DNA of 64,000 nucleotides from Escherichia phage ST2: the sequence record OM982647, one strand, 5' to 3'. The position numbers were made by a program, and so were the translations under genes. Positions within the stretch are counted from its first letter, which is position 1. Each line of letters opens with the position of its first letter. The notes below the pieces were generated by a model. The model was not told the origin of the DNA and made no database searches. It was given only the letters and a program-made list of their open reading frames with translations. Below, piece after piece: positions 1 to 29,700 of this stretch.

Positions 1-710
1 AGAAATCCTTTAACATAATCAAAATCACGTTCAAACACATGGGCACTTACCATGGTATGAGTATAATCACCAACTTCTACACCACATTCGTTAGCGATAT
101 AATGAAGTAATTTTCCTTGGAGATAAAAATCCAGCTGCATAACAACAGCACAGTTCTGGGAACGCATATGACAGTGGGTATAAAGCTTACCATCGCGAAT
201 ATAATAAGTCACTGAGTCAGTACATGGATATTCAAGCGTTTCGTCCGAATCAAGCAAAGCCTGATCAGAACTTTCTAGAATTTGGAACACAACTCTTCGA
301 GAGTTAGGCTTCTCTTTAAGTTCTTTTAGAAGAGCTGGTAATTGGGCCGCAATGCGAGGACCATAGAAAGTGTTGAAGTTCGCCGGCAAAACATCTGATT
401 TTGGTTTAGAAATAAATTTAGCGACATTAGGATATGCCTTAAACGCTTCTTCTGCGTTGGTACCACCAGAAATCATAAACTTCCAGAAGTCTTCGGCATA
501 TTCATAAGAGATGCGGTTAATACGTGGATCGGTCATTTTGAATGATGATGGAGTGTCAACAACTACTGTCATAGACCCAATTTCATTACAACGTCCAATA
601 CGAGAATCAGTTACGAATTCCGGGTTTTCTAAAATTTCACGATTGACTGCTTTAAATGCGGCTTGAAAATCTGCGGCTTTGATATATTTCATTGTGTTAT
701 GTTTTCCCAT
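1..710 (-). CDS. 42: dCMP hydroxymethylase-like enzyme (thymidylate synthase fold), N-terminal part; gene continues past window start
   Basis: Minus-strand ORF open to position 1, ATG at 708-710; TS/dCMP-HMase-like motifs (NSRRVVFQI, YPCTDSV, MRSQN); position matches T4 gene 42. Confidence 0.75.
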   Translation of the reverse strand, partial: MGKHNTMKYIKAADFQAAFKAVNREILENPEFVTDSRIGRCNEIGSMTVVVDTPSSFKMTDPRINRISYEYAEDFWKFMISGGTNAEEAFKAYPNVAKFISKPKSDVLPANFNTFYGPRIAAQLPALLKELKEKPNSRRVVFQILESSDQALLDSDETLEYPCTDSVTYYIRDGKLYTHCHMRSQNCAVVMQLDFYLQGKLLHYIANECGVEVGDYTHTMVSAHVFERDFDYVKGF

Positions 711-751: not shown

Positions 752-991
752 TTATTTGAATTTCTTAGCGATGTTGATATAACGTAGAGCTTCGGCATCG
801 ATACTTCTAAGAACACTATGAAGAAATGCATCAGCGTAGTATTCCAATTGAACAGGTTCTTTAATCACTTTAGCCGCTTTGGTTTCAAACAGGCCCATCA
901 GGGCCTTTTTAAGAATTTGTTCGTTAGTGTTCAGTTTTATAGTCAAAATCTCTTCGTTAAGTTTATAATTAAAACTTTTTCTAGAAATCAT
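752..991 (-). CDS. hypothetical protein (79 aa)
   Basis: Track ORF in same-strand array; start overlaps stop of upstream gene. Confidence 0.45.
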   Translation of the reverse strand: MISRKSFNYKLNEEILTIKLNTNEQILKKALMGLFETKAAKVIKEPVQLEYYADAFLHSVLRSIDAEALRYINIAKKFK

Positions 992-2157
992 TCCGGGTAC
1001 CTCAAAGCGTCATCAGAGTTAGTTATATCAATAATAGATATGGAGTTTTCTGCTAACCCGTTTTTAGATAATTGACGTTTATAATACCTTTCACAATATG
1101 TACACGTTGACCCACAGATTTCATTAGCACAATCAAAATCTGGATGTCTGAACCACCTTTTTTCTAAAAAGCCATCTAACAAAGAGGTTTCAATATTTAC
1201 TGTATGTGAAAACTCAGTCTCATTTTCAAGAGTGAAAATAGTCTCTAAAGGCTTCCACAGTTCTAACAAATTACCTTCAAACTTTTCAGAAGCGTATGCT
1301 TCAAGAACTTTCAAAATGTAGTCTGTGCTACCTGTACGTCCTGAAACTTTGAATTGAGTGATACCAATATCATTATAAAGTTTCAAATCTTGAGGACGAA
1401 CAAAACGAGTTCTCAACCAGTTAAATGGGTCTGTATCACGAGCTTTAATACAGTGCTGCATTGGATATCCATTTAAGGATTTAGCATCATCAGCTGTAAC
1501 ATCAGTACTATGGAAAATATAGCAAGAGTCACGATAGCTACAATGTGTTGTATACCCTTTACCAGCATTAGAACAGAACTCATTTACAAGAACTTCAAAT
1601 ATTATATTATTCTTATTGCAAAACTCTGCTGCACGCTTCAGGAAAGAAACTGAACGGTTCTTATGAATTCCGCAACAGACCTTTTTGATATTATATTGGT
1701 CATGCAAGTATTTGATTTGAGTTACAGCATCGACATGTAGAATTGTTGAAACTTCAATCTCAATGTCTTTATTGACTTCACGAACAATTTCCATAACAAC
1801 AGGGTTAGCGATAGTAATACGCCATACGCCTATTGACCAAAGATACTGAACATAATCCTGAATAGCTTTCTTCTTCCACTCAACTAGTTCTCTTTTTGAA
1901 CCAGGATTTATCGTGTTGAGTGTATAGTTAAAGCAAATACCTAATTCGTTACAACGTTTAACGTAATCTTCTAACATCTTTTTGTCAACGTCAGGAAGCC
2001 TAAAATCAGGTCTGGCTGCTACAAAAGCCATTTCTCTTGTAGAGCCGTATACTTCGTTTATCAAGCTATTAGGATAAGTGTTATTGAGCTCTACGATTTT
2101 ATCAAGAAGAGCTAAATCAAAATTCGTTCCAATTTTAAAAGTATTCATTTTTTGCAT
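988..2157 (-). CDS. peptidase-U32-family-like protein with Cys cluster
   Basis: 389 aa; TIM-barrel-like N-terminus; motifs EFCSNAGKGYTTHCSY and NGYPMQHCIKAR resemble U32 Cys signature; C-terminal CANEICGSTCTYC cluster. Confidence 0.5.
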   Translation of the reverse strand: MQKMNTFKIGTNFDLALLDKIVELNNTYPNSLINEVYGSTREMAFVAARPDFRLPDVDKKMLEDYVKRCNELGICFNYTLNTINPGSKRELVEWKKKAIQDYVQYLWSIGVWRITIANPVVMEIVREVNKDIEIEVSTILHVDAVTQIKYLHDQYNIKKVCCGIHKNRSVSFLKRAAEFCNKNNIIFEVLVNEFCSNAGKGYTTHCSYRDSCYIFHSTDVTADDAKSLNGYPMQHCIKARDTDPFNWLRTRFVRPQDLKLYNDIGITQFKVSGRTGSTDYILKVLEAYASEKFEGNLLELWKPLETIFTLENETEFSHTVNIETSLLDGFLEKRWFRHPDFDCANEICGSTCTYCERYYKRQLSKNGLAENSISIIDITNSDDALRYPE

Positions 2158-2203
2158 CTCACGTTAATTGATGCGATGGTTTTTGCAGGTCTTACTTAAA
2201 TTA

Positions 2204-2590
2204 TTATAGATTCGGTTTATATGATTTAAATGTTTCGAATTCGCCTTTATTCATAAGAGCTTTGAATTCGTCAGGACGCATAGCTTTGTCGTCGATAATC
2301 CAATCATATACTGGTTTATGTGTTAGCAAATTATGGTACTTCAAGCCAATGTTTGCCAAGTTCTGAATCAGACTTGGGAGAATGTCAATTGCTATACGAC
2401 CAGGACCTACTGACTTCATACCGCGAGCAGTGTAAAGCGTTATGGTATGCCCTGCATCATACAGGGCATTAATGGCAGACACCATTTCGACGTCTGGTTT
2501 GAAGTTCACGTAATCACGATTGTTATTCCACTCTGTTATACAATCATCGACATCAAAATAAAGATTAAGCATGTTTTCTACACGGTGCAT
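2204..2590 (-). CDS. HAD-superfamily phosphatase (putative sugar-phosphate phosphatase)
   Basis: HAD motif I FDVDDCIT, motif II LYTARG; ATG at 2588-2590 overlaps upstream stop (TAATG). Confidence 0.6.
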   Translation of the reverse strand: MHRVENMLNLYFDVDDCITEWNNNRDYVNFKPDVEMVSAINALYDAGHTITLYTARGMKSVGPGRIAIDILPSLIQNLANIGLKYHNLLTHKPVYDWIIDDKAMRPDEFKALMNKGEFETFKSYKPNL

Positions 2591-4275
2591 TAGATTCGTT
2601 CCCATTGATGAGTGATATCGCCACCGATTGGACGATAAGAAACGCCAGTTTCTTTATCAGTTAGTACCCATTTACCAGGATTTTTTGTAATCAGAGTAGC
2701 CGTTACAGGTTCTGCTACGTCATAACTAATAGAGCCGTCCTGAAGTACACGGCCCATGTTACGTAATTGCTTAGTCAGAAGTTCCATACCTTTATAATAT
2801 GCGGCTACCGCTTTAAGTGGATTATTCTTGAAATAACCACCTAATGCAATCCAGATAATTGCCACTGCCAAATGATGATACTCGTTAAACGAACTCATCT
2901 TTCCATATTTGTAAACTAATGGATTGATGTTAATAGTCACATTACAAGTTGTTTCATCAATAGTAAACTGTCCCCAGGTCGGATTAGCGTTGAATTCATC
3001 ATAACCAGAAACAGCATAAAGCACTTTAGCTTCATCATACAATTTTGGCCCGTAAATCTTGGTTTCGCCAAAATATCCACGAGGGTCGATAAACTTGACT
3101 TCACCGTTATCAGTAATCATAGTATTACTGAAGTTCGGGTCACCATGAATAACAGAGTACTGACCCTGAGAACGGTTATGATAACGAATAAGGTGTTCTA
3201 AAGCTTGTTTCAGCATTGGCTTCAGACGCCCAATCTTAGTGTAGTTCACGTGTGTGATTTTACCAAATGAATCAATCAATGGTTGAATGCTTTCACAACG
3301 ATCAATAACTTTCGTATAGAATTCTTTAGTGAAATCACGACGAACAGTTTCAGGACTTACAAAATAAGTGTCTGTGCTGAATTTCAGTGCATCTAAAATT
3401 GCATCAACAATTTGTGGACGAGCAAGACTTGATTTGGATTTAATATATTCAAATGCCGGCTTACCTTTAATGCGTTCCATTTCAAAGTTATTTTCATTAA
3501 CAGAAACTAACTGAGGGACTGAATCTGATTTCACTTTAAGATACCATGAAATCTCATCTTTTTGAAGAGCTCGACCCTGTTCGGTTAATGCGAATTTAGT
3601 TACAGTTTCTTCACCAATTTCAACTGCATTAAAACTACGATTAAGTTCACGAACTTCATGAGCTTTTTCAAGTTTAGGCATATCACCTAAATCAATTAGA
3701 TTCATAAGCTCTGATTTATTGAATGCGCTGCCGTAAAGGAATTCTACGAAATCACGTCCTTTGCAGTATTCATGAATTTCCTCATCGGTAGAACCCATAT
3801 AGAATTCCCAGTCTTTGAACTGATAAATTCCTACAACATTACCACCTGTTGAACCTACGTTAATGATATTTTCACCGTCGAAATTATATCGACATTCGTC
3901 ACCCTTAACATAGATTGCGTTAACATTCCAAGACCATGAACCAAAATCAGGAATAATATCACACCAGTTAACAATTACATTATGGCCGTCTAAATCTTTG
4001 TGTAATTTAGCAAGAGCATAAGCAGATCCATACGCTTCATCAACTGTGCGAATAGTCACATTGAACCCTTCTTGCTCACAATAAGCTCGAACAGTTTCAG
4101 CAAATTTTGAATGAACTACTACAATAATTTCATCTGCGCCAAGGTCAGAATAAATTGTATACAAATTGCTCAGAATAGTGTCTTGTTTATAGTTAACAAG
4201 CACCTTAGGAATATGATGCGTTATTGGATATAAACGAGTTGCCAATCCAGCACCAAGAATAACAGCTTTTTTCAT
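2590..4275 (-). CDS. bifunctional sugar-1-phosphate nucleotidyltransferase / APH-fold anomeric sugar kinase
   Basis: 561 aa; N-terminal MKKAVILGAGLATRL (NTP-transferase G-x-G-x-R); C-terminal HGDPNFSNTMI ... KFIDPRG (kinase catalytic loop and metal-binding motif). Confidence 0.7.
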   Translation of the reverse strand: MKKAVILGAGLATRLYPITHHIPKVLVNYKQDTILSNLYTIYSDLGADEIIVVVHSKFAETVRAYCEQEGFNVTIRTVDEAYGSAYALAKLHKDLDGHNVIVNWCDIIPDFGSWSWNVNAIYVKGDECRYNFDGENIINVGSTGGNVVGIYQFKDWEFYMGSTDEEIHEYCKGRDFVEFLYGSAFNKSELMNLIDLGDMPKLEKAHEVRELNRSFNAVEIGEETVTKFALTEQGRALQKDEISWYLKVKSDSVPQLVSVNENNFEMERIKGKPAFEYIKSKSSLARPQIVDAILDALKFSTDTYFVSPETVRRDFTKEFYTKVIDRCESIQPLIDSFGKITHVNYTKIGRLKPMLKQALEHLIRYHNRSQGQYSVIHGDPNFSNTMITDNGEVKFIDPRGYFGETKIYGPKLYDEAKVLYAVSGYDEFNANPTWGQFTIDETTCNVTININPLVYKYGKMSSFNEYHHLAVAIIWIALGGYFKNNPLKAVAAYYKGMELLTKQLRNMGRVLQDGSISYDVAEPVTATLITKNPGKWVLTDKETGVSYRPIGGDITHQWERI

Positions 4276-4316
4276 GTTGAAGTCCTCATTGGTAAGTAGG
4301 AGTATTGTACACTATT

Positions 4317-4460
4317 CTAGTTAAAGCATTCATACTTTGCTTGTAGTCCAATCATAATCCATCCAATTACAAGTGTTGGAATCATTACTGGAGCCGTTAA
4401 GCTCCAGTAGATAGTCATGACAAACATCAATAGTAAAAGTCCTATTGTTATTGATTTCAT
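4317..4460 (-). CDS. small hydrophobic membrane peptide (47 aa), not in ORF track
   Basis: ATG at 4458-4460 overlaps stop of SIS gene (ATGA); translation MKSITIGLLLLMFVMTIYWSLTAPVMIPTLVIGWIMIGLQAKYECFN; occupies imm position. Confidence 0.35.
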   Translation of the reverse strand: MKSITIGLLLLMFVMTIYWSLTAPVMIPTLVIGWIMIGLQAKYECFN

Positions 4461-5092
4461 TGTTCGCCTCGTAACATGGCACCTAGTGCACCGCCAGGGT
4501 GGAACTTAAGGAAGTCATTAGAGGTAAATCCACGTTCAGACGAAAGGTTGATAGCAAACGTATCGATAAGCGCTAACAACAATGTAGTGGACATAGTCGG
4601 AGCTAAAGAGTTCTCGTCAACTTCTACCGCGATACCGGTACAGAACGTATAATCAAAAAGAGCTTCGTATTCTTGTGGAATGTCAGGGTTACAATGTAAC
4701 AGAATCTGTTTAACCTGAGGACGAATCATACGAAGATGCTTAGCCACGCCTATCATTTCTTCAGTTTTACCAGAACGACTAATATGAATCAACACATCAT
4801 TAGGCGCAATGAATCCTGCATCACCGTGAGAATAATGCCCGGTGTTCAAGTACATACTCGGGATACCGAGTGAAGCAAATGTCTCAGAAGCTTTAGTTGC
4901 AATATTAGCATTCTTACCAACACCTGTAATAATTACTCGGCTTTCATAATTACTAAGTCCCGGGCGTCGAAGAGTTTCTAGAATAGCATTATAACGAGCA
5001 GGGTTTTGACTAATTACTTTGGCCATAGCGGCCAAAGAAGAAGCTTGTTTTATGATTGCGTCAATAGCGATAGTAATAGGAGTAGTTTTCAT
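4457..5092 (-). CDS. SIS-domain sugar-phosphate isomerase (arabinose-5-phosphate isomerase KdsD/GutQ-like, no CBS domains)
   Basis: 211 aa; SIS motifs VIITGVGKNANIA, HISRSGKT, C-terminal RGFTSNDFLKFHPGGALG typical of KdsD. Confidence 0.7.
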   Translation of the reverse strand: MKTTPITIAIDAIIKQASSLAAMAKVISQNPARYNAILETLRRPGLSNYESRVIITGVGKNANIATKASETFASLGIPSMYLNTGHYSHGDAGFIAPNDVLIHISRSGKTEEMIGVAKHLRMIRPQVKQILLHCNPDIPQEYEALFDYTFCTGIAVEVDENSLAPTMSTTLLLALIDTFAINLSSERGFTSNDFLKFHPGGALGAMLRGEQ

Positions 5093-13240: not shown

Positions 13241-13469
13241 TACACGCTTCAGCCATTTTAAGAATAGAGCCGGGAGTATCGTTGTCCATTATATTAAAGC
13301 TAAATTCAATAGCCCAGTCGGTGCAGACATGAACTGCTTTAACTTCATTGCCTTCAACGCGTAATGGCTCAATCCAATACTTGATAGTGTTCTCGAATCC
13401 ATCGTCATCTTTAACGTCCATTTCAACTTCAAGCCTGAGTCCAGCATTGTTAAATTCATCTAAAGTCAT
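13212..13469 (-). CDS. hypothetical protein (46.2-like)
   Basis: 85 aa ORF coupled to neighbours. Confidence 0.55.
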   Translation of the reverse strand: MTLDEFNNAGLRLEVEMDVKDDDGFENTIKYWIEPLRVEGNEVKAVHVCTDWAIEFSFNIMDNDTPGSILKMAEACIEDAYNDED

Positions 13470-14485
13470 TGTGTTGCCTCAATATAAAGTTCGTTAGAAT
13501 ATTTGACCAGCGCTTCTCTGTCTTCGTCTGAGATATCTGGAATCGCGTCAATATATTCTTTAATGATATCTTGAAGTGATTTAATCTCGATTTCCTGGTC
13601 GTCATCAGATTCAACACTATTATCAACTTTAGAAACCATACGAAGAGAGTGAACTACTTTTTCAAGTTCAGATTCAAACTTAGTCAACTCTGAATCAATT
13701 TCTGATACTATAACACGTACGGCCAGATTAGTATAATCAGAATAATTGATTTTGCCTTTAAACGGATAAGTGATTCGTCGATGCCATGTTGTTTCATTAG
13801 GAATAAATTCCATACGTTCAACATCAGTGTCAAATACCCAGAATCCGCGCGGGTCGTTCTCATCACCTGCAGTAAGGGTCCATGGTGTCCCAATATATTT
13901 GACGTTAGCAGCTTCAGAGATTGTGTGGAAGTGGCCGGACCAGACTTGTTTATAAGTCTTTAAGAAATCAGGTTCAAGCCCATGAGACTTCATTCCTTTA
14001 TAGAAATAAAAGCCATTCAGTTCCCAGTGCCCAACACAATACGCTGCAGAAGAAGTCTTGATGTGCTCTAAGATTTCACCTGTATTTTCTTCACACATCC
14101 ATGGAACGATATCAATCAGACATCCGTCAAAATCTACAGTAGTTGGATGCTCATAAATAGTAAAGTTTTCAAATTGAGTTAACAATTCAGAAACAGTGTT
14201 AGGTGTTATTGTATTCTTAAACGCCATGTCATGGTTTCCTATCGTGACATGAACGTGAATGCCTGCTTTAGAAATCATATCAACGATTTCACGATTGAAT
14301 TCCATTGTACGATGTGTTATTGCTTTACGGACGTCAAACCAATCACCGTACTGGATCCAAGTTTTAATCCCGTGTTTCTTAGAGTATTCAATTGCTTGAC
14401 GAATACCATCACGTTGAATATCTTGAACCCATGGGTCGTCTTGTTTGACTCCGATATGGAAGTCGCCTAAGTGCAAAATTTTCAT
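13466..14485 (-). CDS. 47: recombination endonuclease subunit gp47 (SbcD/Mre11-like)
   Basis: 339 aa; phosphoesterase motifs LHLGDFH, GNHD. Confidence 0.95.
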   Translation of the reverse strand: MKILHLGDFHIGVKQDDPWVQDIQRDGIRQAIEYSKKHGIKTWIQYGDWFDVRKAITHRTMEFNREIVDMISKAGIHVHVTIGNHDMAFKNTITPNTVSELLTQFENFTIYEHPTTVDFDGCLIDIVPWMCEENTGEILEHIKTSSAAYCVGHWELNGFYFYKGMKSHGLEPDFLKTYKQVWSGHFHTISEAANVKYIGTPWTLTAGDENDPRGFWVFDTDVERMEFIPNETTWHRRITYPFKGKINYSDYTNLAVRVIVSEIDSELTKFESELEKVVHSLRMVSKVDNSVESDDDQEIEIKSLQDIIKEYIDAIPDISDEDREALVKYSNELYIEATQ

Positions 14486-14529
14486 ATTATTTCCTCATTA
14501 GTTAATTCATTCTATCATCCGTTTATAAA

Positions 14530-14555
14530 GCAAAAAAGGAACTCCGAAGAGTTCC
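14530..14555 (-). terminator. rho-independent terminator
   Basis: Minus strand GGAACTCTTCGGAGTTCC followed by T6. Confidence 0.6.
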
Positions 14556-14728
14556 TATCCACATAGTACACCGTACAGAGGCTCATTTGAACTTTTAAAT
14601 CGAATGGGCTTGTATGTAATAGTTCCTTCGGCTTTAGCTTTATCATAAGACTCTTTAAAACGTCTCATTCTTTCTGCTTTGCCTTTACGGATTTTATCGA
14701 AATTTTCAGAGGTCAGGTCGTTCGTCAT
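14555..14728 (-). CDS. small hypothetical protein (57 aa), not in ORF track
   Basis: ATG 14726-14728 after GAGAGG; stop adjacent to terminator hairpin. Confidence 0.35.
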   Translation of the reverse strand: MTNDLTSENFDKIRKGKAERMRRFKESYDKAKAEGTITYKPIRFKSSNEPLYGVLCG

Positions 14729-14767
14729 GCATAATCGCCTCTCAGAAAATACCTAAATCGATTTCTC

Positions 14768-14989
14768 TCATCGTTTCCACCATTTCTTAACTTGAAATGA
14801 ATCGACCCACACGAGTTGTTTTGGGTCTGCCTTTACAATAGGCGGACAAATTTCTGTAATAGAACCGTCGTGATATTCCTTTTCAGAAATTTTAACACAA
14901 AGAGGACCTCCCAATTTAAGGGTGAACCCTGCGTTCAGCTTCAGACGTTTAAACTTTGTTTGAACTAGCGCCATTAATGATGTCCTCAA
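14768..14989 (-). CDS. hypothetical protein
   Basis: 73 aa track ORF, same-strand array. Confidence 0.5.
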   Translation of the reverse strand: MRTSLMALVQTKFKRLKLNAGFTLKLGGPLCVKISEKEYHDGSITEICPPIVKADPKQLVWVDSFQVKKWWKR

Positions 14990-15272
14990 TAGCCTGACGA
15001 GTAGTAACCCACTGGATTTTAATTAACTTGTCATTATATGGTTGTCGTAGAATATCCCGAGATTTCTTAATAGCATATTCGTAAGCTTCGAAGTTGTTTT
15101 GAATTGCTGCTTCTTGAGCATGAGCATAAAGACGGTTTAGTTCAAAACGATTCTTTTTAAGAATCTTTTCGGATTTTTTACGTGCTTCAGCTTCATTTTT
15201 CTTTTGGATTTCTTGTAGCATTTTAGCTACTGCATCTTCTGCTTCTTTATTTTCAATAATCTCGGTAGTCAT
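14949..15272 (-). CDS. hypothetical protein
   Basis: 107 aa track ORF. Confidence 0.5.
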   Translation of the reverse strand: MTTEIIENKEAEDAVAKMLQEIQKKNEAEARKKSEKILKKNRFELNRLYAHAQEAAIQNNFEAYEYAIKKSRDILRQPYNDKLIKIQWVTTRQAIEDIINGASSNKV

Positions 15273-15273
15273 A

Positions 15274-15483
15274 TTATCTCATTAAATTAAAATAAAAACG
15301 TCCATCCTCTTCAATACAGAACTCATACTCAACCGGAGTCCCATTTATCGAAAATGACACGTCATGTGGGTTCAAAGGGTCGATGTCAAAATTAATTTTA
15401 AATTCACGACCCAACAGTTTTACCAAATAAGGGATTGCTTCGTCAAAAGGTTCTTCTAAGTAGTTAGAGATGTCAATTGTCAT
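15274..15483 (-). CDS. hypothetical protein (69 aa)
   Basis: ATG at 15481-15483 overlaps the last codons of gene 55 (different frame). Confidence 0.5.
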
Positions 15484-16030
15484 CCTCATATAAAAAATCC
15501 AAACTAGGCGAATCGCTAACAACTTCCTTCTTTTCAGCCCCAGGAGCTTTATAAGCGGATTCTTCATAATGCGTCATTTTATCGTAGATGTCTTGAATAA
15601 ACGTTTCATCTACCAACGCTACCATATCATCGTCATGACTGTCGTAGACATTATGAACGAAGTAACTATATTTCTTTGCAACTTCCTTACGTTCTTTTTT
15701 GATACGTTGGACAAAAGCATTAAAACAAGCTCGAGTTATGTATGCATGTGGGTTATTGTACTTAGTTTCGTCGAAATTATGAAGTCCCTTAATAGAGGCT
15801 TCAATCCCATCTGCAATCATCTCCTGCTTCCAAGACTGGGTATATCCTGAAAAGTTGAAACGTTTGGACAGGCCTTCGGCGATAAGCATAATTGCTAAAC
15901 CGATGGTATCATTCTGACGAATAATTTTGTTTGGGTCTTTATTATTTAAAAGCTCCTTTTTCCACTCGATTATAGCGGCGAGAAGCTCTTTATTATTCAC
16001 ATAGTTATTTTTAGGTTTTTGTTCAGTCAT
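15473..16030 (-). CDS. 55: late-transcription sigma factor gp55
   Basis: 185 aa; T4 gp55-like sequence and size. Confidence 0.93.
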
Positions 16031-16080
16031 AAGTACCTCTTAGCTCAATTCATAGGTCTATTATATCATAATATTTAGAG
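16031..16080 (-). promoter_or_regulatory. promoter with stem-loop upstream of gene 55
   Basis: Minus strand TAGGTCT ... TATAAT ... AGACCTA inverted repeat around -10 (approximate span). Confidence 0.4.
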
Positions 16081-16102
16081 ACCTATCTTAAAGCACGAGA
16101 TA

Positions 16103-16372
16103 CTATCGGAGCAAACAATAAGCCTGAAACACTTTTTCCATTAAACGTTTGAACTCATGGATATCGATATAAAGCTCAGTAAGACCGGCATTATAAAGAA
16201 AATCTAAAAAGTTCTCATGTGTTTCGTTATAGTCGCCTTCGTTTAATTGAGATACATGAGTTTCCCAAAAACCAACACCTTTAACGAATGGAAAATACGT
16301 GACTTTCATGTATTCGTCAACATAAAATTCGCCCAGCTTTTCTTCAGTTATACTGATTCGAGTTAATTTCAT
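16103..16372 (-). CDS. hypothetical protein
   Basis: 89 aa track ORF. Confidence 0.5.
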   Translation of the reverse strand: MKLTRISITEEKLGEFYVDEYMKVTYFPFVKGVGFWETHVSQLNEGDYNETHENFLDFLYNAGLTELYIDIHEFKRLMEKVFQAYCLLR

Positions 16373-16596
16373 TCTAGTTCCTTTGCTGCTTCAAGAGCAG
16401 CATCCAGCGAATCAAATTGGTCAACGAAATCAATATTCAACGCATCGTCAACCGTAGCATATAACCACCATTGTTTGAATTCATATTCTAGAATAAATCC
16501 AGGACCTTCAATCTGAGGAAGACCTAGGCTATTTGTACTAACTTCGTAACCAGCTAGACGCAGGTCATTAATCAAAGTTTCTGTTAATACGCTCAT
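16369..16596 (-). CDS. hypothetical protein
   Basis: 75 aa track ORF, overlapping start/stop. Confidence 0.5.
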   Translation of the reverse strand: MSVLTETLINDLRLAGYEVSTNSLGLPQIEGPGFILEYEFKQWWLYATVDDALNIDFVDQFDSLDAALEAAKELE

Positions 16597-16925
16597 TTTA
16601 CCGCCTTAACAATTTTCAGGTCAACAAATTTTTTCTTACGTTGATTTTTCATACGACGGATAGTCTTTTCAGAGATTTCATGTTTCTGATAAGCTTTAGA
16701 TTCAACACCAAATGCAGCAACGTCAAATTCAGAAAGAATATATTGTACTAGAATTTCACGAATAGAATTACGTCCAATTTTCTGGTCGTGTTTTTGCATG
16801 ATTTCATAAAGACGGAATTCCCATGCGTCAAGAACTTGAGGAGTAACAATATTGCCGGATTCCAGAAGAGCAACAACTTTATCGAAAGCGAAAGAATTAA
16901 CTACGTTTTTGATTTTAGTAGACAT
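16593..16925 (-). CDS. hypothetical protein (110 aa)
   Basis: Start moved to ATG 16923-16925 (MSTKIK) after GAGGAAA; upstream in-frame codons lie in promoter. Confidence 0.5.
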   Translation of the reverse strand: MSTKIKNVVNSFAFDKVVALLESGNIVTPQVLDAWEFRLYEIMQKHDQKIGRNSIREILVQYILSEFDVAAFGVESKAYQKHEISEKTIRRMKNQRKKKFVDLKIVKAVK

Positions 16926-16962
16926 ATTATTTTCCTCGGTTATTTTATTATCCAACGAGAGA

Positions 16963-16992
16963 ATTATACTCATCTCTCAAGAGTTTGTATAC
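16963..16992 (-). promoter_or_regulatory. early promoter with inverted repeat flanking -10
   Basis: Minus strand GTATAC ... GAGAGA-TGAG-TATAAT-TCTCTC. Confidence 0.5.
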
Positions 16993-17231
16993 TATTTTTT
17001 AAGCATGAAAAGTAAGTAATTTGTATCACGTGGAGTAATATCAACACCCATATCAAAGATGCCTTTATAGATTGGGTATTTGTTTTCGGTTGTATCGAAG
17101 CTGAAACTATTTCCATCACAACTAACAGTAATAGCATCTGTTAAAATGTCATACTCAATCCTAACAATTGAATCCCCAATTTTAATGTCGAGGTGTTTTT
17201 TGAATTTGATAAAATCTAATTCTTGGGCCAT
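16992..17231 (-). CDS. hypothetical protein
   Basis: 79 aa track ORF. Confidence 0.5.
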   Translation of the reverse strand: MAQELDFIKFKKHLDIKIGDSIVRIEYDILTDAITVSCDGNSFSFDTTENKYPIYKGIFDMGVDITPRDTNYLLFMLKK

Positions 17232-17294
17232 GATATTTTCCTCATTTTAAGAGGATAGGAAGACATGTTATTATCTTCCTACCATCGTAAACTA

Positions 17295-17495
17295 TTAACC
17301 GAACTTTTTAGCGCCTTTCCAGCCTTCGTACATAACTGCGCAAGTCAATAGCACAGCATGTTGGCATTCTTTGTATTTGTAAATCCAGAACCAGCGTAAA
17401 AAGTCTTCATCCTCAACACCGTTGAGTTTCATATTGGCAAAGAATTCGGCACGTTCTTCACGAAGTTGCCATGACACAATATTTTCAGGATTCAT
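17295..17495 (-). CDS. hypothetical protein
   Basis: 66 aa track ORF. Confidence 0.45.
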   Translation of the reverse strand: MNPENIVSWQLREERAEFFANMKLNGVEDEDFLRWFWIYKYKECQHAVLLTCAVMYEGWKGAKKFG

Positions 17496-17627
17496 TTAAA
17501 TTTCCCAATTGCCATTTTCATCAATAAATTTAATCCAGTCAGTTACTGACCACTTAGTTGTATCGCCTTTTGGAGTAGCATTTAAAGTGTAGAACCCTTG
17601 CTTAAAAAGCCAGCGTTTGATATTCAT
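17496..17627 (-). CDS. hypothetical protein (43 aa)
   Basis: ATG 17625-17627 after GAGGAAA; longer track ORF overlaps upstream gene. Confidence 0.4.
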   Translation of the reverse strand: MNIKRWLFKQGFYTLNATPKGDTTKWSVTDWIKFIDENGNWEI

Positions 17628-17634
17628 AATTTCC

Positions 17635-17928
17635 TCAACTGTAACGATAACATTCGTTAGCTTTACGTTTGGCTTCAGTATGAGAAGTATTATAATCATA
17701 ATCTTCTTTACTGTAAACATCTTTTTTCAACTTACGAACTTCTTTGCGGAGTTGTCGATTCATTTCATTCTTGACTTCAGAATCAACGCCTTTCATACGT
17801 TTCCATTTATCTGAGCGGAAAATGTTTTCAACCATGTTTTTGTGGCTAACACCGTCAGGAGCTTTACGCTTACCAAAATAGTCGTAATCACGAACTTTCA
17901 AATCTTTACGACGATATGTTTTACCCAT
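17635..17928 (-). CDS. hypothetical basic protein (97 aa)
   Basis: ATG 17926-17928 after GAGG; Lys/Arg-rich. Confidence 0.5.
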   Translation of the reverse strand: MGKTYRRKDLKVRDYDYFGKRKAPDGVSHKNMVENIFRSDKWKRMKGVDSEVKNEMNRQLRKEVRKLKKDVYSKEDYDYNTSHTEAKRKANECYRYS

Positions 17929-17935
17929 AAGTACC

Positions 17936-18184
17936 TCAGAGGTTGATTGATACAACACGTTTGATAAAATTCACTTCACTTACTGAAAGGTCTTTAAGAC
18001 CGATTGATTCTAAACGCTGAGTAAGCGTCAACATCGGGATATAATCCCATTGAGTTTTATTTGCTTGATAAGTACGAACGCCATTAGCAATTTCAACATG
18101 TAAATCGGAAATGGTAACGAATACCGGTCGCTCGTCATTAACTTTAAGGGTTAGAACAACTTTCTTTGAATCTAAACTAATCAT
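17936..18184 (-). CDS. hypothetical protein
   Basis: 82 aa track ORF. Confidence 0.5.
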   Translation of the reverse strand: MISLDSKKVVLTLKVNDERPVFVTISDLHVEIANGVRTYQANKTQWDYIPMLTLTQRLESIGLKDLSVSEVNFIKRVVSINL

Positions 18185-18363
18185 GGCTTAATTTCCTTCG
18201 CAATTGAACAGAAGATACCACGGTCACAAAGCATTTCGCCAATTTCTGGATATTTGATTGAACGGTACCAAACATCCAGGCTTGAAACTCTGGTTATCTG
18301 TATTGCATTACCGTTGACAGAATAGTACTGGCCAACCTTAATTTCTTTATCTTCAATTGTCAT
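18181..18363 (-). CDS. hypothetical protein (60 aa)
   Basis: ATG 18361-18363 after GGA; upstream part of track ORF is probably untranslated. Confidence 0.4.
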   Translation of the reverse strand: MTIEDKEIKVGQYYSVNGNAIQITRVSSLDVWYRSIKYPEIGEMLCDRGIFCSIAKEIKP

Positions 18364-23990: not shown

Positions 23991-24295
23991 TATAATGTTC
24001 TCTCAAATTTGTGGAAGCATTTACGGCATTTCAATTTCAAGTTATCAGTGGTCCAGTTAACCAGTTGGACTTGGATAGTTCCACATTCCGGGCATGGATG
24101 TTTTGCTGCCGATTTGGCAGCATTTTCACGTCGTTCAACCATTTTCATTATTTCGTTCCATGCCGGAGGAACGAACTCTTCTTCACCGTGGATTTTATCT
24201 CGTTGAACAAATTCAATCTTTGAACTATCGTCAATAAACTTAACCAAGCTGTGATTAGTGCTCATATCAATATCCTCTAAAAGACGTAGTTTCAT
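23990..24295 (-). CDS. zinc-ribbon protein
   Basis: 101 aa; CPEC ... CRKC. Confidence 0.5.
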   Translation of the reverse strand: MKLRLLEDIDMSTNHSLVKFIDDSSKIEFVQRDKIHGEEEFVPPAWNEIMKMVERRENAAKSAAKHPCPECGTIQVQLVNWTTDNLKLKCRKCFHKFERTL

Positions 24296-25245
24296 TATAA
24301 CACCTCAATGGCATTTCGTAAACCATCCGCTTTTGCATTCAGAGCTTTTAATGATTTAGTTTGTTCTGCAATCTGGGCTTCGACTTCTTTCAGACGAGAT
24401 TTGAGATATTCGCGTTCTTCTCTTAAGTTATCAACTTTTTCTGCTTTAGGCTCTTTAATAGGCTTAGGCTTATACTCGTTAGGGTTCTTCAACTTAATTT
24501 GAATGCGAGAACTGTATAACATTGAGCCATTATCTTCGGTTTCATCATACATTTCCACTACATCCATAATTTTTAGCATCATACGAAGTTTATAAGACAG
24601 CGAACGAACGGTTTTGTTGCGCTTATTAATTTCTTCGGCTTTCATAGTACCGAGATTACGTGAGTAGTAATAAGGAACCTGGATATCAATTGACAATGAT
24701 GCGTTACCATTACCAGTTGGTTTGAATACTGCAGTAACCCAATCTTTAACATGAACTTTATTTGTACGGTCATCGCCGCCTGTGAATAATTTACATGAAT
24801 GTTTAAAAAGCATATTCACTTGGTTATTGAATTCACAAGCAAATTTATCAGCAAATTTAGTTTCAGGAATGGTAGAGAACCAATCAGCCAAATGAGTCTT
24901 TTTAACATCATTAACAATAGTGAATTCAACCAAATCGGTTTTAGATGTCACAGATTTAATAAAGCTCGGTTTCATAAAGTTTTTAATGTTATCGCGAGCT
25001 ACAGTAGAAGATAATAAACGAGAACGTTTGAACCATTGAAGCAGCGTCCCTAATGAATGAGAATACGCATTCTGAGTATCTTTACAGATATGATTTTCTT
25101 GACCTGTGTATGTACCAAAATCTCGAAGAATGCCACTTACTACAACTCGGTGTGGAACATCAAATCCTAATGAACCAGAAGCACGTTGGGCATGAACGTT
25201 AGCGATAAGGCCTGCAAAGTATTCAATGTAATGTGAACGTGTCAT
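24295..25245 (-). CDS. hypothetical protein with C-terminal coiled coil
   Basis: 316 aa; heptad-like C-terminus. Confidence 0.55.
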   Translation of the reverse strand: MTRSHYIEYFAGLIANVHAQRASGSLGFDVPHRVVVSGILRDFGTYTGQENHICKDTQNAYSHSLGTLLQWFKRSRLLSSTVARDNIKNFMKPSFIKSVTSKTDLVEFTIVNDVKKTHLADWFSTIPETKFADKFACEFNNQVNMLFKHSCKLFTGGDDRTNKVHVKDWVTAVFKPTGNGNASLSIDIQVPYYYSRNLGTMKAEEINKRNKTVRSLSYKLRMMLKIMDVVEMYDETEDNGSMLYSSRIQIKLKNPNEYKPKPIKEPKAEKVDNLREEREYLKSRLKEVEAQIAEQTKSLKALNAKADGLRNAIEVL

Positions 25246-25273
25246 AATATTTTCCTCTCGTTAAGATAGAAAG

Positions 25274-25303
25274 ATTATACTCCAACCATCCTTGGTTGTA
25301 AAC
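25274..25303 (-). promoter_or_regulatory. early promoter GTTTAC-N18-TATAAT with spacer hairpin
   Basis: Minus strand GTTTACAACCAAGGATGGTTGGAGTATAAT. Confidence 0.55.
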
Positions 25304-25307
25304 TGAT

Positions 25308-26240
25308 TTATGATTTTAATGCATTCATTGCGTTAAAAAGTTTAGAGTACTGCAACTGGAGCTTGGTAACTACTTGTTGAGCATCACGAAGCTTAGCTTG
25401 TGCTTTGTCAAGTTCAACAGACAGTTGGTCCACAGTGGCCTTGATTTGATTATAATAGTAATCTTCGGCAGGAAGAAGACCGTTAGAGATTTCCAGTTTA
25501 GTCGACGGTGTGCCGTTAAACATAACAGGTTGTGCTGAAGCTGCATTAATCTTACCGATAGTCGGGTCGACAATAATTGACGCTTCGAACATTGCATTTT
25601 CCTTTTTAAGATTTTTATAATATTCAGAGTCTTTGTGCCACCATGGCGCAGGAACCTTTTTACCAATAGATACACGGGCCTGGATAGCGATATGGCCCTT
25701 ATTCTTGATAAGGTCGATAATATTAAGCTCACGAGAATAAATCGCTTTAATCTGGTGGATATTATCACCTAAAACTTCCAACGCTTGGTGGAATACACGA
25801 GCAACGTTATCATTCTTAGGTTTATACGTAAGAGTAAACTCATTCTCACTGATAACCATGATTTCTAACTTATCGTAAGTATATTTCAAATGTTTCATGT
25901 TAATTGCTTGAGGACGAATACGAGAAGCAATGGCCATCAGATTGTTAAGGTTATTTCTGAACTGTTTAGCAAAATATTGCCCGGTGCCGCCGATACAAAA
26001 ATTACGAAGTTTCTGTTTGGCTAATAAACGGCTGAACTCACCATTTTTAATGAACTCTTTAACGGGTGTGTTGGTAACGCATTCAAATTGAGTAAACTTA
26101 CGAGAAGTAATCCCATAATATGAACAGATTTCCTCAATCTCTTCAGGAGTCTTTACAGGCATACGGATAGGATTAGGTCCTGGAGTATATGCGTTCGAGG
26201 TAAATTCTTTGATAAGTTCTCTACGTGTAATAGAAGCCAT
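25308..26240 (-). CDS. hypothetical protein with C-terminal coiled coil
   Basis: 310 aa. Confidence 0.55.
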   Translation of the reverse strand: MASITRRELIKEFTSNAYTPGPNPIRMPVKTPEEIEEICSYYGITSRKFTQFECVTNTPVKEFIKNGEFSRLLAKQKLRNFCIGGTGQYFAKQFRNNLNNLMAIASRIRPQAINMKHLKYTYDKLEIMVISENEFTLTYKPKNDNVARVFHQALEVLGDNIHQIKAIYSRELNIIDLIKNKGHIAIQARVSIGKKVPAPWWHKDSEYYKNLKKENAMFEASIIVDPTIGKINAASAQPVMFNGTPSTKLEISNGLLPAEDYYYNQIKATVDQLSVELDKAQAKLRDAQQVVTKLQLQYSKLFNAMNALKS

Positions 26241-26266
26241 TTTATATTCCTCATGTTGAAAAATTT

Positions 26267-26296
26267 ATTATACTCCAACCATCCTTGGTTGTACAT
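26267..26296 (-). promoter_or_regulatory. early promoter, near-duplicate of 25274-25303
   Basis: Minus strand TGTACAACCAAGGATGGTTGGAGTATAAT. Confidence 0.55.
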
Positions 26297-27294
26297 CATT
26301 CCTTAAGAAGTTTTACTACTTGAATAAGATTAGCTCGTTCTGTTTTATTTTTACCGTTTAAGCCTGCTAATCGTGAGATCTCATCGTCAGTCTGTTGAAT
26401 AGTTACATTAAGTTCGTTAATCAAAGCTTCAAAGTATTTGATTTGCTCAGCATGTTTTGATTCAAATTTCTGAACCGGAATAACGTCTTGGTTTAGTTCA
26501 TCAATAAGGTCTTTAAGAGCATCTTCTTGGTTGATATCATATTCAACTTCTTTTATTTCTTCAACGAGCTCGTCTTTATATCTAACGTCTTTTAGTCCTG
26601 GTGCGGGCCCGGAAATCTCTTCTTTAAGAGTACAAACATACCCAATATGGTATCCAATACCCAGGAACGGCTTGATATCAACTTCGTCGATAAATCCACA
26701 ATGTTTAAGACCAGAGCCGATTAGGTCAAAATATCCTTGACGTCGTCCTTCAAACGTTACACGAACTACTAAGACGGTTTTACCTGCAACCTTTTGAAGC
26801 TCACATTTATAAAAGTCAGTTGAACCTGAATAACGTGGATGAGTTTTAAAGTTCATCTGACGATCTAGGCCCATTTGTAAACGTGCTGTTACGGCCATAA
26901 AACGTGTTTGGTTCTCGTTAAGATGAGCAACAATCTGTTTCAAAGGCATTTTACCCTGTTCACGACCGAACAAATCAGTACGTCCTAAATTACGCAAGAT
27001 GTTGTTAGAGTTAATCATCGACAGAACGTTAAGTTTATTCAGCGCGCTGAAGATTCCATCAACCATTGATTTTCCGTAACCTTTACACGCTTTAATAAGC
27101 GCTCGCGGTAGATTAGTATAGATTTCAGACGGCATATGAAAATCAAATTTTCTAACCAGTAATTGATGAACTTGGATAGCAATTTGCTCATAATTAAGTG
27201 CTCTGCGATCGTTATGGTCTTTAAACCACACTTTAATCTGTGAAGCACATAAACCGTTAATTTCATGTTTTACCGCATCAGATGTAATGCTCAT
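26296..27294 (-). CDS. hypothetical protein with C-terminal coiled coil
   Basis: 332 aa. Confidence 0.55.
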   Translation of the reverse strand: MSITSDAVKHEINGLCASQIKVWFKDHNDRRALNYEQIAIQVHQLLVRKFDFHMPSEIYTNLPRALIKACKGYGKSMVDGIFSALNKLNVLSMINSNNILRNLGRTDLFGREQGKMPLKQIVAHLNENQTRFMAVTARLQMGLDRQMNFKTHPRYSGSTDFYKCELQKVAGKTVLVVRVTFEGRRQGYFDLIGSGLKHCGFIDEVDIKPFLGIGYHIGYVCTLKEEISGPAPGLKDVRYKDELVEEIKEVEYDINQEDALKDLIDELNQDVIPVQKFESKHAEQIKYFEALINELNVTIQQTDDEISRLAGLNGKNKTERANLIQVVKLLKE

Positions 27295-27329
27295 AACTAT
27301 TTCCTCAGATTGAATTGGAACTCAAAACC

Positions 27330-27353
27330 ATTATAACCCGTCCTTGGGTAAAG
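27330..27353 (-). promoter_or_regulatory. early promoter CTTTAC-N-TATAAT
   Basis: Minus strand CTTTACCCAAGGACGGGTTATAAT. Confidence 0.45.
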
Positions 27354-27356
27354 CGT

Positions 27357-27884: not shown

Positions 27885-27911
27885 GTTTTACCTCCAGTAG
27901 TTGATAGGTCT

Positions 27912-27940
27912 ATAATAACATAACCATAGACCTTGTAAAC
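27912..27940 (-). promoter_or_regulatory. early promoter/stem-loop cassette
   Basis: Minus strand GTTTAC-N17-TATTAT with AGACCTAT inverted repeat. Confidence 0.45.
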
Positions 27941-27942
27941 AA

Positions 27943-28230: not shown

Positions 28231-28368
28231 AACATATCCTCTTTGATTTGTACATCGTTATTTTTAAATATTTCTATGCCCTCAGTAGGTTCCTGGTGTC
28301 CTTCTTTGAGGTAAGCCATATGATTATTCATCTTTATGGCTTTTGTTACCTCAGAACTTCCTATAAGC

Positions 28369-29370: not shown

Positions 29371-29379
29371 TTTGTTTCG

Positions 29380-29418
29380 ATAGGTCTATAATAACATGTT
29401 TAAAGCAAAAGTAAACAA
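29380..29418 (-). promoter_or_regulatory. early promoter/stem-loop cassette
   Basis: Minus strand GTTTAC-N17-TATTATAGACCTATC. Confidence 0.45.
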
Positions 29419-29637: not shown

Positions 29638-29649
29638 TTTGTTCTCCTC

Positions 29650-29692: not shown

Positions 29693-29700
29693 ACTACTTT

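Follow-up and report, generated by a model that had tools for sequence, protein, structure and literature searches.

Absence of alpha-glucosyltransferase between genes 47 and 55 of Escherichia phage ST2 and its probable relation to arabinosyl-5-hydroxycytosine chemistry

In phage T4, the stretch from gene 55 to gene 47 includes the alpha-glucosyltransferase gene (a-gt) and reads 55, a-gt.5, a-gt.4, a-gt.3, a-gt.2, mobB, a-gt, 47.1 and 47. This raises the question of what occupies the same place in Escherichia phage ST2, and what the contents of the interval may say about the modified base in its DNA. The window considered here is a 64,000-nucleotide stretch of ST2 (record OM982647); the remaining ~105 kb of the genome were inferred from relatives. 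On nucleotide identity, the phage is assigned to Mosigvirus, the RB69-like T-even coliphages, since the window matches genomes of this genus at 99% over positions 13500–16500 and at 97% over positions 1–25000. Phages a20, APCEc01 and HY126 are about 99% identical to it over the first segment, and Bas47, which has a complete genome of 168,968 bp, is 97% identical across the second. A 3-kb query was covered to at least 80% by 146 phage records. The gene order 47, a-gt.2 to a-gt.5, 55 is common to mar005P1, 308Ecol101PP, HY126 and Bas47. RB69 and the other Mosigvirus phages compared (HY126, Bas46, Bas47 and NP) share with ST2 the gene order from the gene-42-like gene to gene 55 at 97–99% nucleotide identity, a set of cassette proteins that are 95–100% identical, an enzyme bearing a D169N substitution, and the absence of a-gt, b-gt and ba-gt. 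They differ from ST2 by a few percent of sequence and in nothing of substance.

The interval and its two boundary genes contain the following features:

13466..14485, minus strand: gene 47, encoding an SbcD-like subunit of the recombination nuclease and bounding the interval on its lower side (339 aa; 76% identity to T4 gp47, full length; annotated as gp47 in relatives)
14509..14532, minus strand: MotA-box-like middle-promoter site upstream of gene 47 (TGCTTTA, 11-nt spacer, -10 element TAGAAT)
14531..14556, minus strand: intrinsic-terminator-like hairpin (14537–14556) followed by U6, beginning at the a-gt.2 stop codon (8-bp stem, UUCG loop)
14555..14728, minus strand: a-gt.2 homolog (57 aa; Pfam DUF5486, E = 4.5e-28; 75% to T4 a-gt.2; dN/dS 0.24; 100% to HY126)
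14768..14974, minus strand: a-gt.3 homolog (68 aa; PHROG 1648, E = 1.6e-34; 71% to T4 a-gt.3; dN/dS 0.10)
14949..15272, minus strand: a-gt.4 homolog (107 aa; Pfam DUF2654, E = 1e-27; 58% to T4 a-gt.4; dN/dS 0.21)
15274..15489, minus strand: a-gt.5 homolog (71 aa; Pfam DUF5491, E = 5.8e-13; 47% to T4 a-gt.5; bounds as annotated in mar005P1)
15473..16030, minus strand: gene 55, encoding the late sigma factor and bounding the interval on its upper side (91% to T4 gp55 within the tblastn match, 89% globally)

The first-pass annotation of this DNA had described an interval of four small ORFs (57–107 aa) and a terminator, without the a-gt that T4 carries there. This description is borne out on each count, as the interval consists of conserved homologs of a-gt.2 to a-gt.5, a UUCG hairpin with its U6 tail, and 34 bp of unmatched DNA. 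A blastn comparison with the T4 locus (L004) produced two colinear blocks, the first pairing window positions 13445–14487 with 13408–14450 of L004, and the second pairing 14522–16095 with 16703–18223. Homology and colinearity extend to the flanking genes, to the four a-gt.N genes and to the hairpin that follows a-gt.2. T4 has 2252 bp between the two blocks, coding for the homing endonuclease mobB (HNH type), the alpha-glucosyltransferase (GT-B type) and 47.1, a protein of 46 aa, whereas the window has the 34 bp.

Relative to T4, the small ORFs have dN/dS values of 0.10–0.24 where dS is unsaturated and are therefore real genes. Three of them match Pfam families, while PHROG 1648 is the sole family match of the a-gt.3 homolog. 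The start of the a-gt.5 homolog overlaps the final 17 nt of gene 55. Despite their a-gt.N names, which carry no implied glucosylation function, the four ORFs have no tie to glucosylation and are kept with or without a-gt. An Rfam scan of the whole window identified three tRNAs only, none of them inside the interval.

The hairpin at 14537–14556 on the minus strand has a predicted folding energy of -13.9 kcal/mol (z = -3.33). On the transcribed strand it contains GC pairs and runs directly into a U tract, and it lies 3' of a stop codon, all as expected of a Rho-independent terminator. The pattern alone is weak, given that a consensus scan of 2.8 kb returned two sites against 1.6 expected. Homology to the hairpin that follows a-gt.2 in T4 supports 14531–14556 as a candidate Rho-independent terminator. 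Adjacent to it, the site at 14509–14532 resembles the published MotA-box consensus and may function as a middle promoter. The pattern TGCTTTA-N11-13-TANNNT occurs eight times in the window, where 1.1 occurrences would be expected, and the putative site aligns with T4 counterparts located after a-gt.2 and after a-gt.

How the short interval arose may be considered in terms of two histories: an ancestral state without a-gt, into which Tequatrovirus later inserted the gene, or the secondary loss by deletion of an a-gt present in the ancestor, in step with the switch to arabinose. The deletion is a serious contender that falls somewhat short of an even chance. Klebsiella phage Roth78, which is related to JD18 and Mineola and which we take to be a Jiaodavirus, has the same framework of gene 55, four small ORFs and gene 47. 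It differs in carrying its own a-gt directly upstream of gene 47, without mobB. The Roth78 a-gt is 65.8% identical to that of T4, a value close to those of the flanking genes 46, 47 and 55 (65–76%), which fits vertical descent from before the split of T4 and Mosigvirus. In addition, the mobB and a-gt block of T4 sits between two copies of a hairpin and MotA-box module, and the single module in the window looks as though recombination between the copies had fused the left half of one with the right half of the other. Insertion of a cassette, however, predicts the same module structure equally well. The absence of a-gt is also widespread, extending to the 47–55 intervals of Winklervirus, Krischvirus, Acinetobacter T4-like phages and cyanophages. 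The polarity of gain or loss was judged from pairwise identities only, and these could not settle the direction.

Since so many T4-like genera are without a-gt at this locus, its absence alone is weak evidence and not diagnostic of the type of DNA modification. The glucosylating phages CC31 and Moon, for example, have b-gt plus ba-gt and no a-gt (PMC6024577). The nature of the base has to be read from other parts of the window, above all from its first 5 kb, which encode the following:

1..710, minus strand: gene-42 position, thymidylate-synthase (TS) homolog of the 5-hydroxy-dCMP synthase type (last two codons beyond the window start)
752..991, minus strand: 79-aa ORF, RB69 ORF049c-like (PHROG 8601)
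988..2157, minus strand: U32-family protein, RB69 gp50-like (Pfam Peptidase_U32, 42 bits against a cutoff of 22.4; weak UbiU match)
2204..2605, minus strand: HAD-type sugar phosphatase, AfhF / RB69 gp51-like (NCBIfam capsule-biosynthesis phosphatase, E = 7e-13; PHROG 1238; 95.5% to HY126; role according to PMC13326640)
2590..4275, minus strand: fusion of a sugar-1-phosphate nucleotidyltransferase (N-terminal part) with a kinase (C-terminal part), AfhE / RB69 gp52:53-like (Pfam NTP_transferase, weak kinase-family matches, NCBIfam nucleotidyltransferases; 96.8% to HY126)
4457..5092, minus strand: arabinose-5-phosphate isomerase, RB69 gp55-like (Pfam SIS; NCBIfam KpsF/GutQ, E = 5e-32, and KdsD, E = 2e-30; PHROG 5670; 99.1% to HY126)

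Very probably, ST2 combines the Mosigvirus short form of the 47–55 interval with an arabinosyl-5-hydroxycytosine chemistry, and hence has no a-gt. The short form would run from a-gt.5 to a-gt.2, followed by the hairpin terminator, a MotA-type middle promoter and gene 47, without the block of mobB, a-gt and 47.1. Because the phage would make neither hmC nor glucosyl-hmC, it would have no need for a-gt. In the proposed pathway, dCMP is first converted to 5-hydroxy-dCMP by the flavin- and O2-dependent TS homolog (1–710), and this product is then phosphorylated by the phage dNMP kinase (52868–53602) on its way to DNA. The cassette at 2204–5092 diverts ribulose-5-P to arabinose-5-P and on to UDP-arabinofuranose. 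These three steps are shown by the sequence of the window together with published biochemistry on proteins that are 95–99% identical. In a fourth step, one or two arabinoses would be attached to the 5-hydroxyl by a pair of GT-B arabinosyltransferases.

The gene-42 homolog provides the clearest departure from T4, in which 5hmC is made by the dCMP hydroxymethylase gp42 and then glucosylated. It has 25% identity to T4 gp42. In contrast, a phmmer comparison with PDB entry 9iqc gave E = 1.8e-159, and global identity is 97.1% to the HY126 protein and 98.3% to that of Bas47; at positions where 9iqc differs from the window, its sequence is that of HY126. Aligned to ThyA, the homolog shows D169 replaced by N, N177 by D and L143 by E. 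Two Asp residues, at ThyA positions 169 and 177, and closeness to T4 gp42 characterize T-even dCMP hydroxymethylases; here N177D is present and position 169 is Asn, while T4 gp42 retains Asp at the latter. The catalytic Cys, N177D, an acidic residue at position 143 (L143D/E) and the diagnostic D169N, which together mark 5-hydroxy-dCMP synthases, are all found in the ST2 protein. D169N is described as the signature of these enzymes (PMC13326640), and the same source reports that the crystallized HY126 enzyme uses flavin and O2 for cytosine hydroxylation. The base in ST2 DNA is thus predicted to be 5-hydroxycytosine with arabinose, not hmC, and window positions 1–710 should be annotated as a 5-hydroxy-dCMP synthase rather than a dCMP hydroxymethylase. 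The non-glucose hmC chemistry proposed at first pass consequently survives in one half: the sugar appears not to be glucose, given the arabinose-type cassette at 752–5092, and the hmC half is contradicted by the D169N substitution and the low identity to gp42.

An alternative with respect to the base is that hmC is made as in T4 and decorated with a sugar other than glucose, giving arabinosyl-hmC. This has a basis in the literature, as ara-hmC was reported in RB69 by Thomas et al. 2018 (PMC6024577), and many GenBank records, including that of Bas47, name the gene-42 homolog a "dCMP hydroxymethylase" and the transferase an "hmC-arabinosyltransferase". It is nevertheless very unlikely. Apart from the D169N signature, the distance to gp42 and the match to the hydroxylating HY126 enzyme, RB69 gp48 was found to form 5hodC in vivo with incorporation of 18O2, and NMR and MS placed an ether link directly at C5 of the modified base (PMC13326640). 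The RB69 ara-5hmdC assignment is now called "erroneously identified" (PMC13390438). RB69 and DLP3 have been reported to contain mono- or poly-arabinosyl-5-hydroxycytosine made via the TS homolog (PMC13326640), and the DNA of Mosigvirus NP to contain 5-ara-dC and 5-ara-ara-dC (PMC13390438). In all, arabinosyl-5-hydroxy-dC has been shown for RB69, NP, HY126, Bas46 and Bas47, with LC-MS and NMR as the published methods, and Mosigvirus DNA is reported to carry 5-hydroxy-dC in both mono- and di-arabinosyl form (PMC13326640, PMC13390438).

The supply of the sugar is consistent with an arabinosyl-5-hydroxycytosine base. The set for UDP-arabinofuranose (arabinose-5-phosphate isomerase, kinase/nucleotidyltransferase and HAD phosphatase) is present in the window, with proteins 95.5–99.1% identical to those of HY126. 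PMC13326640, citing He et al. 2026, reports HY126 AfhE and AfhF as the makers of UDP-arabinofuranose. The family matches support the reading of 752–5092 as a sugar-nucleotide cassette that points away from glucose. Its 79-aa ORF is the most variable member (92% to Bas47 versus 98–99.5% for its neighbors), with homologs in Mosigvirus-like contigs only (76–97% identity, some truncated). A diverged chorismate mutase, by comparison with the corresponding slot of Kanagawavirus KLB31, was considered for this ORF and rejected: there was no BLASTP similarity to one and no CM_2 match even at E ≤ 10, and its homologs are confined to Mosigvirus.

The arabinosyltransferases themselves (RB69 gp46:47-like and gp3-like) have no tblastn match within the window. 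Because the genes lie outside it, the transfer step is inferred from relatives. Both genes occupy the positions predicted by synteny in Bas47 and HY126; the Bas47 copies are a 299-aa gene adjoining the TS homolog and, next to rIIA, a 366-aa "putative hmC-arabinosyltransferase". In ST2 they would accordingly be expected at the position of T4 b-gt next to the gene-42 homolog, and between rIIA and the topoisomerase gene. The 366-aa gp3-like protein of Bas47 matches PDB entry 9iqz with E = 1.8e-250. A PDB sequence search with the 299-aa arabinosyltransferase-1 homolog or with the U32-like protein gave no match.

A search for the glucosyltransferases a-gt, b-gt and ba-gt, which the first-pass annotation had named as a check on its claim, was run on the window and the complete Bas47 genome and returned no homolog. 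For T4 a-gt (400 aa, GT-B), tblastn found nothing credible in the 64 kb. A match at 45883–46062 (E = 0.016, 27% over 69 aa) was rejected as chance, since it falls in a 207-aa ORF of PHROG 2607 without glycosyltransferase signal; the same piece recurs in Bas47 as the best a-gt match genome-wide (E = 0.066). T4 b-gt had no match at E < 1 in either sequence, and RB14 ba-gt had a best E of 0.85 in Bas47 and reached no value below 1 in the window. Among 15 window ORFs of at least 200 aa and four shorter ones, no glycosyltransferase family was identified with Pfam. This last result counts little and a cryptic glycosyltransferase is possible, because Pfam misses both known Mosigvirus arabinosyltransferases. 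Homologs of a-gt were found in 657 phage records; the matches listed comprise T4-like coliphages and relatives (at least 90%) and Klebsiella or Raoultella phages (about 66%), with no RB69-like phage among them. In RB69, all three glucosyltransferases are missing by BLASTP and HMM, and arabinose is present (PMC6024577). A structure-based survey of RB69 proteins found two glycosyltransferase-like proteins only, both assigned as arabinosyltransferases (PMC13326640). That a glucosyltransferase is encoded elsewhere in the genome and the DNA is glucosylated is extremely improbable: ~105 kb lie beyond the window and GT-B enzymes are hard to detect, but no such homolog was found in Bas47 or RB69, both RB69 candidates are accounted for, and the D169N of the gene-42 homolog means that there would be no 5hmC precursor to glucosylate.

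RB69-like phages without a-gt, b-gt and ba-gt and with an arabinose chemistry were already published in 2018, and the absence of a-gt from the ST2 interval is the normal state of the genus and adds nothing new. The base was revised to 5-hydroxycytosine in publications of 2025–2026. The type of modification bears on the prediction of sensitivity to type IV restriction (GmrSD/BrxU), DNA glycosylases and CRISPR, as well as on how the DNA of such phages is sequenced and cloned. The U32-family gene is the sole item here with potential for discovery.

It is conceivable, if rather unlikely, that the U32 protein acts as an O2-independent, prephenate-dependent cytosine C5-hydroxylase. If so, 5-hydroxycytosine could be made in anaerobic growth (e.g., in the gut), conditions under which the published flavin- and O2-dependent 5hodCMP synthase is unable to act. 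Chorismate mutase is the enzyme that makes prephenate, and in 48 non-Mosigvirus records a genuine chorismate mutase gene lies beside the synthase homolog and, where annotated, adjoins the U32 gene. The characterized bacterial U32 enzymes (UbiU/V, TrhP and RlhA) are all hydroxylases of this kind, and two act on pyrimidine C5 (PMC6747719, PMC6599085, PMC10990095). The phage U32 gene was found in 221 phage records, which by organism name are overwhelmingly phages of Enterobacterales together with a Shewanella phage. Neither Acinetobacter nor Rhizobium appears among the ten most frequent names; the synthase, by contrast, is present in 57 Acinetobacter and 20 Rhizobium phage records. Against the hydroxylase reading, Dhakavirus JS98 has no U32 gene, and the corresponding Mosigvirus slot contains no recognizable chorismate mutase. 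The U32 Fe-S motif consists of four cysteines, CX6CX15CX3/4C (PMC6747719). In an alignment with UbiU, UbiV, RlhA and TrhP, the first (C195) and third (C212) are in register, and the second and fourth are replaced by Tyr202 and His216, leaving the motif half canonical. Additional cysteines are present near the motif (Cys206 and Cys236) and in a C-terminal CX4CX3CX2C arrangement.

Winklervirus (Serratia phages CHI14 and LC53) provides a comparison for this part of the genome. Like ST2, these phages have no a-gt between genes 55 and 47, and they encode both a TS homolog and a U32 gene, in an arrangement that LC53 shares with CHI14. Arabinosylated 5hodC has been reported for LC53 (PMC13326640). 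A difference is their chorismate mutase gene, which separates the U32 gene from the TS homolog at the place taken in Mosigvirus by the unrelated 79-aa ORF. More generally, the hydroxycytosine cluster of sister genera pairs the U32 gene with one for chorismate mutase.

The 712 phage records that match a 3-kb query from the window (13500–16500) include 146 that span at least 80% of it. The top matches are 99.0–99.3% identical and come from Escherichia phages a20, NRG-P0074, APCEc01, mar005P1, moha and HY126; where a genus is stated, it is Mosigvirus (RB69 group, Tevenvirinae). The first 25 kb of the window, in which every gene lies on the minus strand, is 97% identical to F31, AlbertHofmann (BASEL Bas47), APCEc01 and AV110. 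The locus is a member of the known, experimentally characterised Mosigvirus arabinosyl-5-hydroxycytosine pathway, with protein identities of 95–100%. The absence of the α-glucosyltransferase gene (a-gt) from this Mosigvirus locus is already known, and a 47–55 interval without a-gt is common to at least 146 database genomes.

The first-pass annotation placed four small ORFs of 57–107 aa, and no a-gt, between genes 47 and 55. Both observations hold, the ORFs being homologs of T4 a-gt.2 to a-gt.5.

13466–14485 (−), gene 47, 76% identical to T4 gp47
14509–14532 (−), MotA-box-like site (TGCTTTA, 11 nt, TAGAAT) directly after the hairpin U tract
14537–14556 (−), terminator-like hairpin starting at the a-gt.2 stop codon (8-bp stem, UUCG loop, six U's)
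14555–14728 (−), a-gt.2 homolog, 57 aa, 75% identity
14768–14974 (−), a-gt.3 homolog, 68 aa, 71% identity
14949–15272 (−), a-gt.4 homolog, 107 aa, 58% identity
15274–15489 (−), a-gt.5 homolog, 71 aa, 47% identity
15473–16030 (−), gene 55, identical to T4 gp55 at 91% over the tblastn match and 89% globally

All four small ORFs match PHROGs of unknown function, three match Pfam families (DUF5486, DUF2654, DUF5491), and the records of relatives annotate them equivalently. Values of dN/dS against T4 of 0.10–0.24 (pairs with unsaturated dS) mark them as genes under purifying selection. In T4, a-gt is indeed present in this interval, in the order 55, a-gt.5, a-gt.4, a-gt.3, a-gt.2, mobB, a-gt, 47.1, 47. 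A blastn comparison with the T4 stretch gave two colinear blocks, between which 34 bp of the window lie opposite 2252 bp of T4; the missing piece is therefore exactly mobB, a-gt and 47.1.

The hairpin, previously described as a strong terminator, has a predicted fold of −13.9 kcal/mol (z = −3.3). The site that follows it, which we take to be a T4-type MotA-box middle promoter going by the consensus familiar from the T4 literature, precedes a Shine-Dalgarno sequence and the gene 47 start codon. The pattern TGCTTTA-N11–13-TANNNT occurs 8 times in the window versus 1.1 expected. Further sites include 4304–4328 (−), 34480–34505 (−) and 50370–50394 (−), and one lies just upstream of the nucleotidyltransferase/kinase gene of the arabinose cassette, a hint that the cassette may be expressed as middle genes. 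T4 has a homologous hairpin and MotA-box module twice, after a-gt.2 and after a-gt, bracketing the mobB/a-gt block (14560–14640 and 16672–16756 of the T4 comparison locus, L004). The lone module of the window (14509–14556, −) is like the first T4 copy up to GCTTTATAAA and like the second beyond it, which gives it a hybrid appearance. This arrangement suggests that the block may have been gained or lost via recombination between the repeated regulatory modules, and either direction fits.

Comparison with other phages does not favor one direction. Klebsiella phage Roth78, unlike the window, has an a-gt at exactly the empty place. With 65.8% identity to T4 a-gt, it is about as diverged as the neighboring core genes (65–76%), so that loss of a-gt by Mosigvirus and never having had it both stand. 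Intervals without a-gt, like that of the window, are found in Serratia Winklervirus CHI14, Krischvirus Aragogtheria and Acinetobacter phage Konradin, and gene 47 directly adjoins gene 55 in several cyanophages. Phages such as CC31 and Moon, which have no a-gt, glucosylate with b-gt and ba-gt (PMC6024577, Table 1). A missing a-gt is a correlate of the chemistry, neither its cause nor diagnostic of it.

The homolog search proposed in the first-pass annotation was carried out by tblastn with T4 a-gt, T4 b-gt and RB14 (T2-type) ba-gt. No credible homolog was found in the 64-kb window or in the complete Bas47 genome (168,968 bp, joined from five pieces). The sole weak a-gt match (E = 0.016) fell in a 207-aa ORF assigned to an unrelated PHROG and was discarded. 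The phage collection has 657 records with an a-gt homolog. Approximately 500 are at least 90% identical and, among the matches listed, belong to T4-like phages of E. coli and its relatives; approximately 143 are near 66% and, among the matches listed, belong to Klebsiella and Raoultella phages. No RB69-like phage is among the matches listed. A run of five ORFs of 310–333 aa at 24295–30731 (−), mostly of unknown function, has matches that include DUF7235, an AAA/HTH-like protein and an RlaP-type nucleotidyltransferase, while two of the ORFs match PHROGs and nothing else; none of the five resembles a glycosyltransferase.

In Bas47, two genes fill the T4 b-gt position (uvsX to the gene 42 homolog), one of them thymidylate-kinase-like and the other of 299 aa, and a 366-aa "putative hmC-arabinosyltransferase" that matches PDB 9iqz (E = 1.8e-250, deposited as a GT4-like glycosyltransferase) adjoins rIIA. 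The counterparts of the 299-aa and 366-aa genes are outside the 64-kb window. Within it are the following genes, those of the cassette (752–5092) being 95.5–99.1% identical to their HY126 counterparts at the protein level and the middle three assigned from domain evidence along with the isomerase.

1–710 (−), gene 42 homolog of thymidylate-synthase type; the window starts two codons inside its 3' end
752–991 (−), 79-aa ORF, cassette
988–2157 (−), U32-family protein, cassette
2204–2605 (−), HAD phosphatase, cassette
2590–4275 (−), fused nucleotidyltransferase/kinase, cassette
4457–5092 (−), KdsD/KpsF-type arabinose-5-phosphate isomerase, cassette
52868–53602, dNMP kinase

The gene 42 homolog has just 25% identity to T4 dCMP hydroxymethylase and matches PDB 9iqc/9ir2 (E = 1.8e-159), whose sequence is that of the HY126 protein at all positions differing from the window. 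Aligned with E. coli ThyA and T4 gp42, it retains the catalytic cysteine and carries L143E and the cytosine-specificity change N177D. Position 169 is Asn, versus Asp in ThyA and T4 gp42, and D169N marks enzymes that make 5-hydroxy-dCMP, not 5-hydroxymethyl-dCMP; the RB69 enzyme, gp48, binds flavin and incorporates 18O from O2 (Lee et al. 2026, PMC13326640). By the account of He et al. (2026) given in PMC13326640, HY126 AfhE and AfhF convert arabinose-5-P through arabinose-1,5-bisphosphate and arabinose-1-P to UDP-arabinofuranose. All three glucosyltransferase genes (a-gt, b-gt, ba-gt) are missing from RB69, which contains arabinose (PMC6024577); its DNA has mono- and di-arabinosylated 5-hydroxycytosine, ether-linked at C5 (PMC13326640). 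Both 5-ara-dC and 5-ara-ara-dC occur in the DNA of Mosigvirus NP, and the previous assignment, ara-hmC, has been termed erroneous (PMC13390438). Of the proposed non-glucose hmC chemistry, the non-glucose part is borne out by the arabinose cassette and the RB69 chemistry; the hmC part is contradicted by D169N and by 5-hydroxycytosine in Mosigvirus.

The U32-family protein (RB69 gp50) is labeled only "sugar or heterocycle reductase" in PMC13326640 and is discussed neither there nor in the Thanatos paper. The characterised bacterial U32 proteins UbiU/UbiV, TrhP and RlhA are Fe-S, prephenate-dependent, O2-independent hydroxylases, with TrhP and RlhA acting at C5 of uridine and cytidine in RNA (PMC6747719, PMC6599085, PMC10990095). 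The U32 observation in phages concerns 988–2157 (−) of the window and L016:4611–6022. By tblastn, the phage U32 gene occurs in 221 records, by organism name overwhelmingly Enterobacterales phages together with a Shewanella phage. The 5-hydroxy-dCMP synthase homolog occurs in 373, of which 57 are from Acinetobacter phages and 20 from Rhizobium phages; neither name is among the ten commonest for U32, which leaves each with three U32-bearing records at most. In Kanagawavirus KLB31, the U32 gene and the synthase are separated by a 79-aa gene for a genuine chorismate mutase of the AroQ type (Pfam CM_2, 38.5 bits), an enzyme whose product is prephenate. Its homologs adjoin the synthase homolog in 48 non-Mosigvirus records of several genera, and in those with informative annotation the U32 gene is a neighbor as well. 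Dhakavirus JS98 has neither gene. In the window, the slot is occupied by the unrelated ORF at 752–991 (−), which has no detectable similarity to chorismate mutase and has homologs only in Mosigvirus. These diverge unusually fast (76–97% identity, some shortened to 47–58 aa) next to genes at approximately 99%. Two of the four canonical cysteines of E. coli U32 proteins are in register in the phage protein (C195, C212); the other two positions hold Tyr and His, and additional cysteines lie close by. The U32 module may provide an anaerobic route to 5-hydroxycytosine, though this is less likely than not.

Outdated or wrong annotations persist in GenBank. In many Mosigvirus records the D169N enzyme still appears as "dCMP hydroxymethylase" or "thymidylate synthase" and the transferase as "hmC-arabinosyltransferase"; in the HY126 record, consecutive unrelated ORFs of the nrdC region carry the label "thioredoxin". 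At 50074–50307 (−) the window has three tRNA genes side by side, for Arg-TCT, Asn-GTT and a Met/Ile type with anticodon CAT, versus only two, Arg and Ile, annotated in the close relative Bas47.
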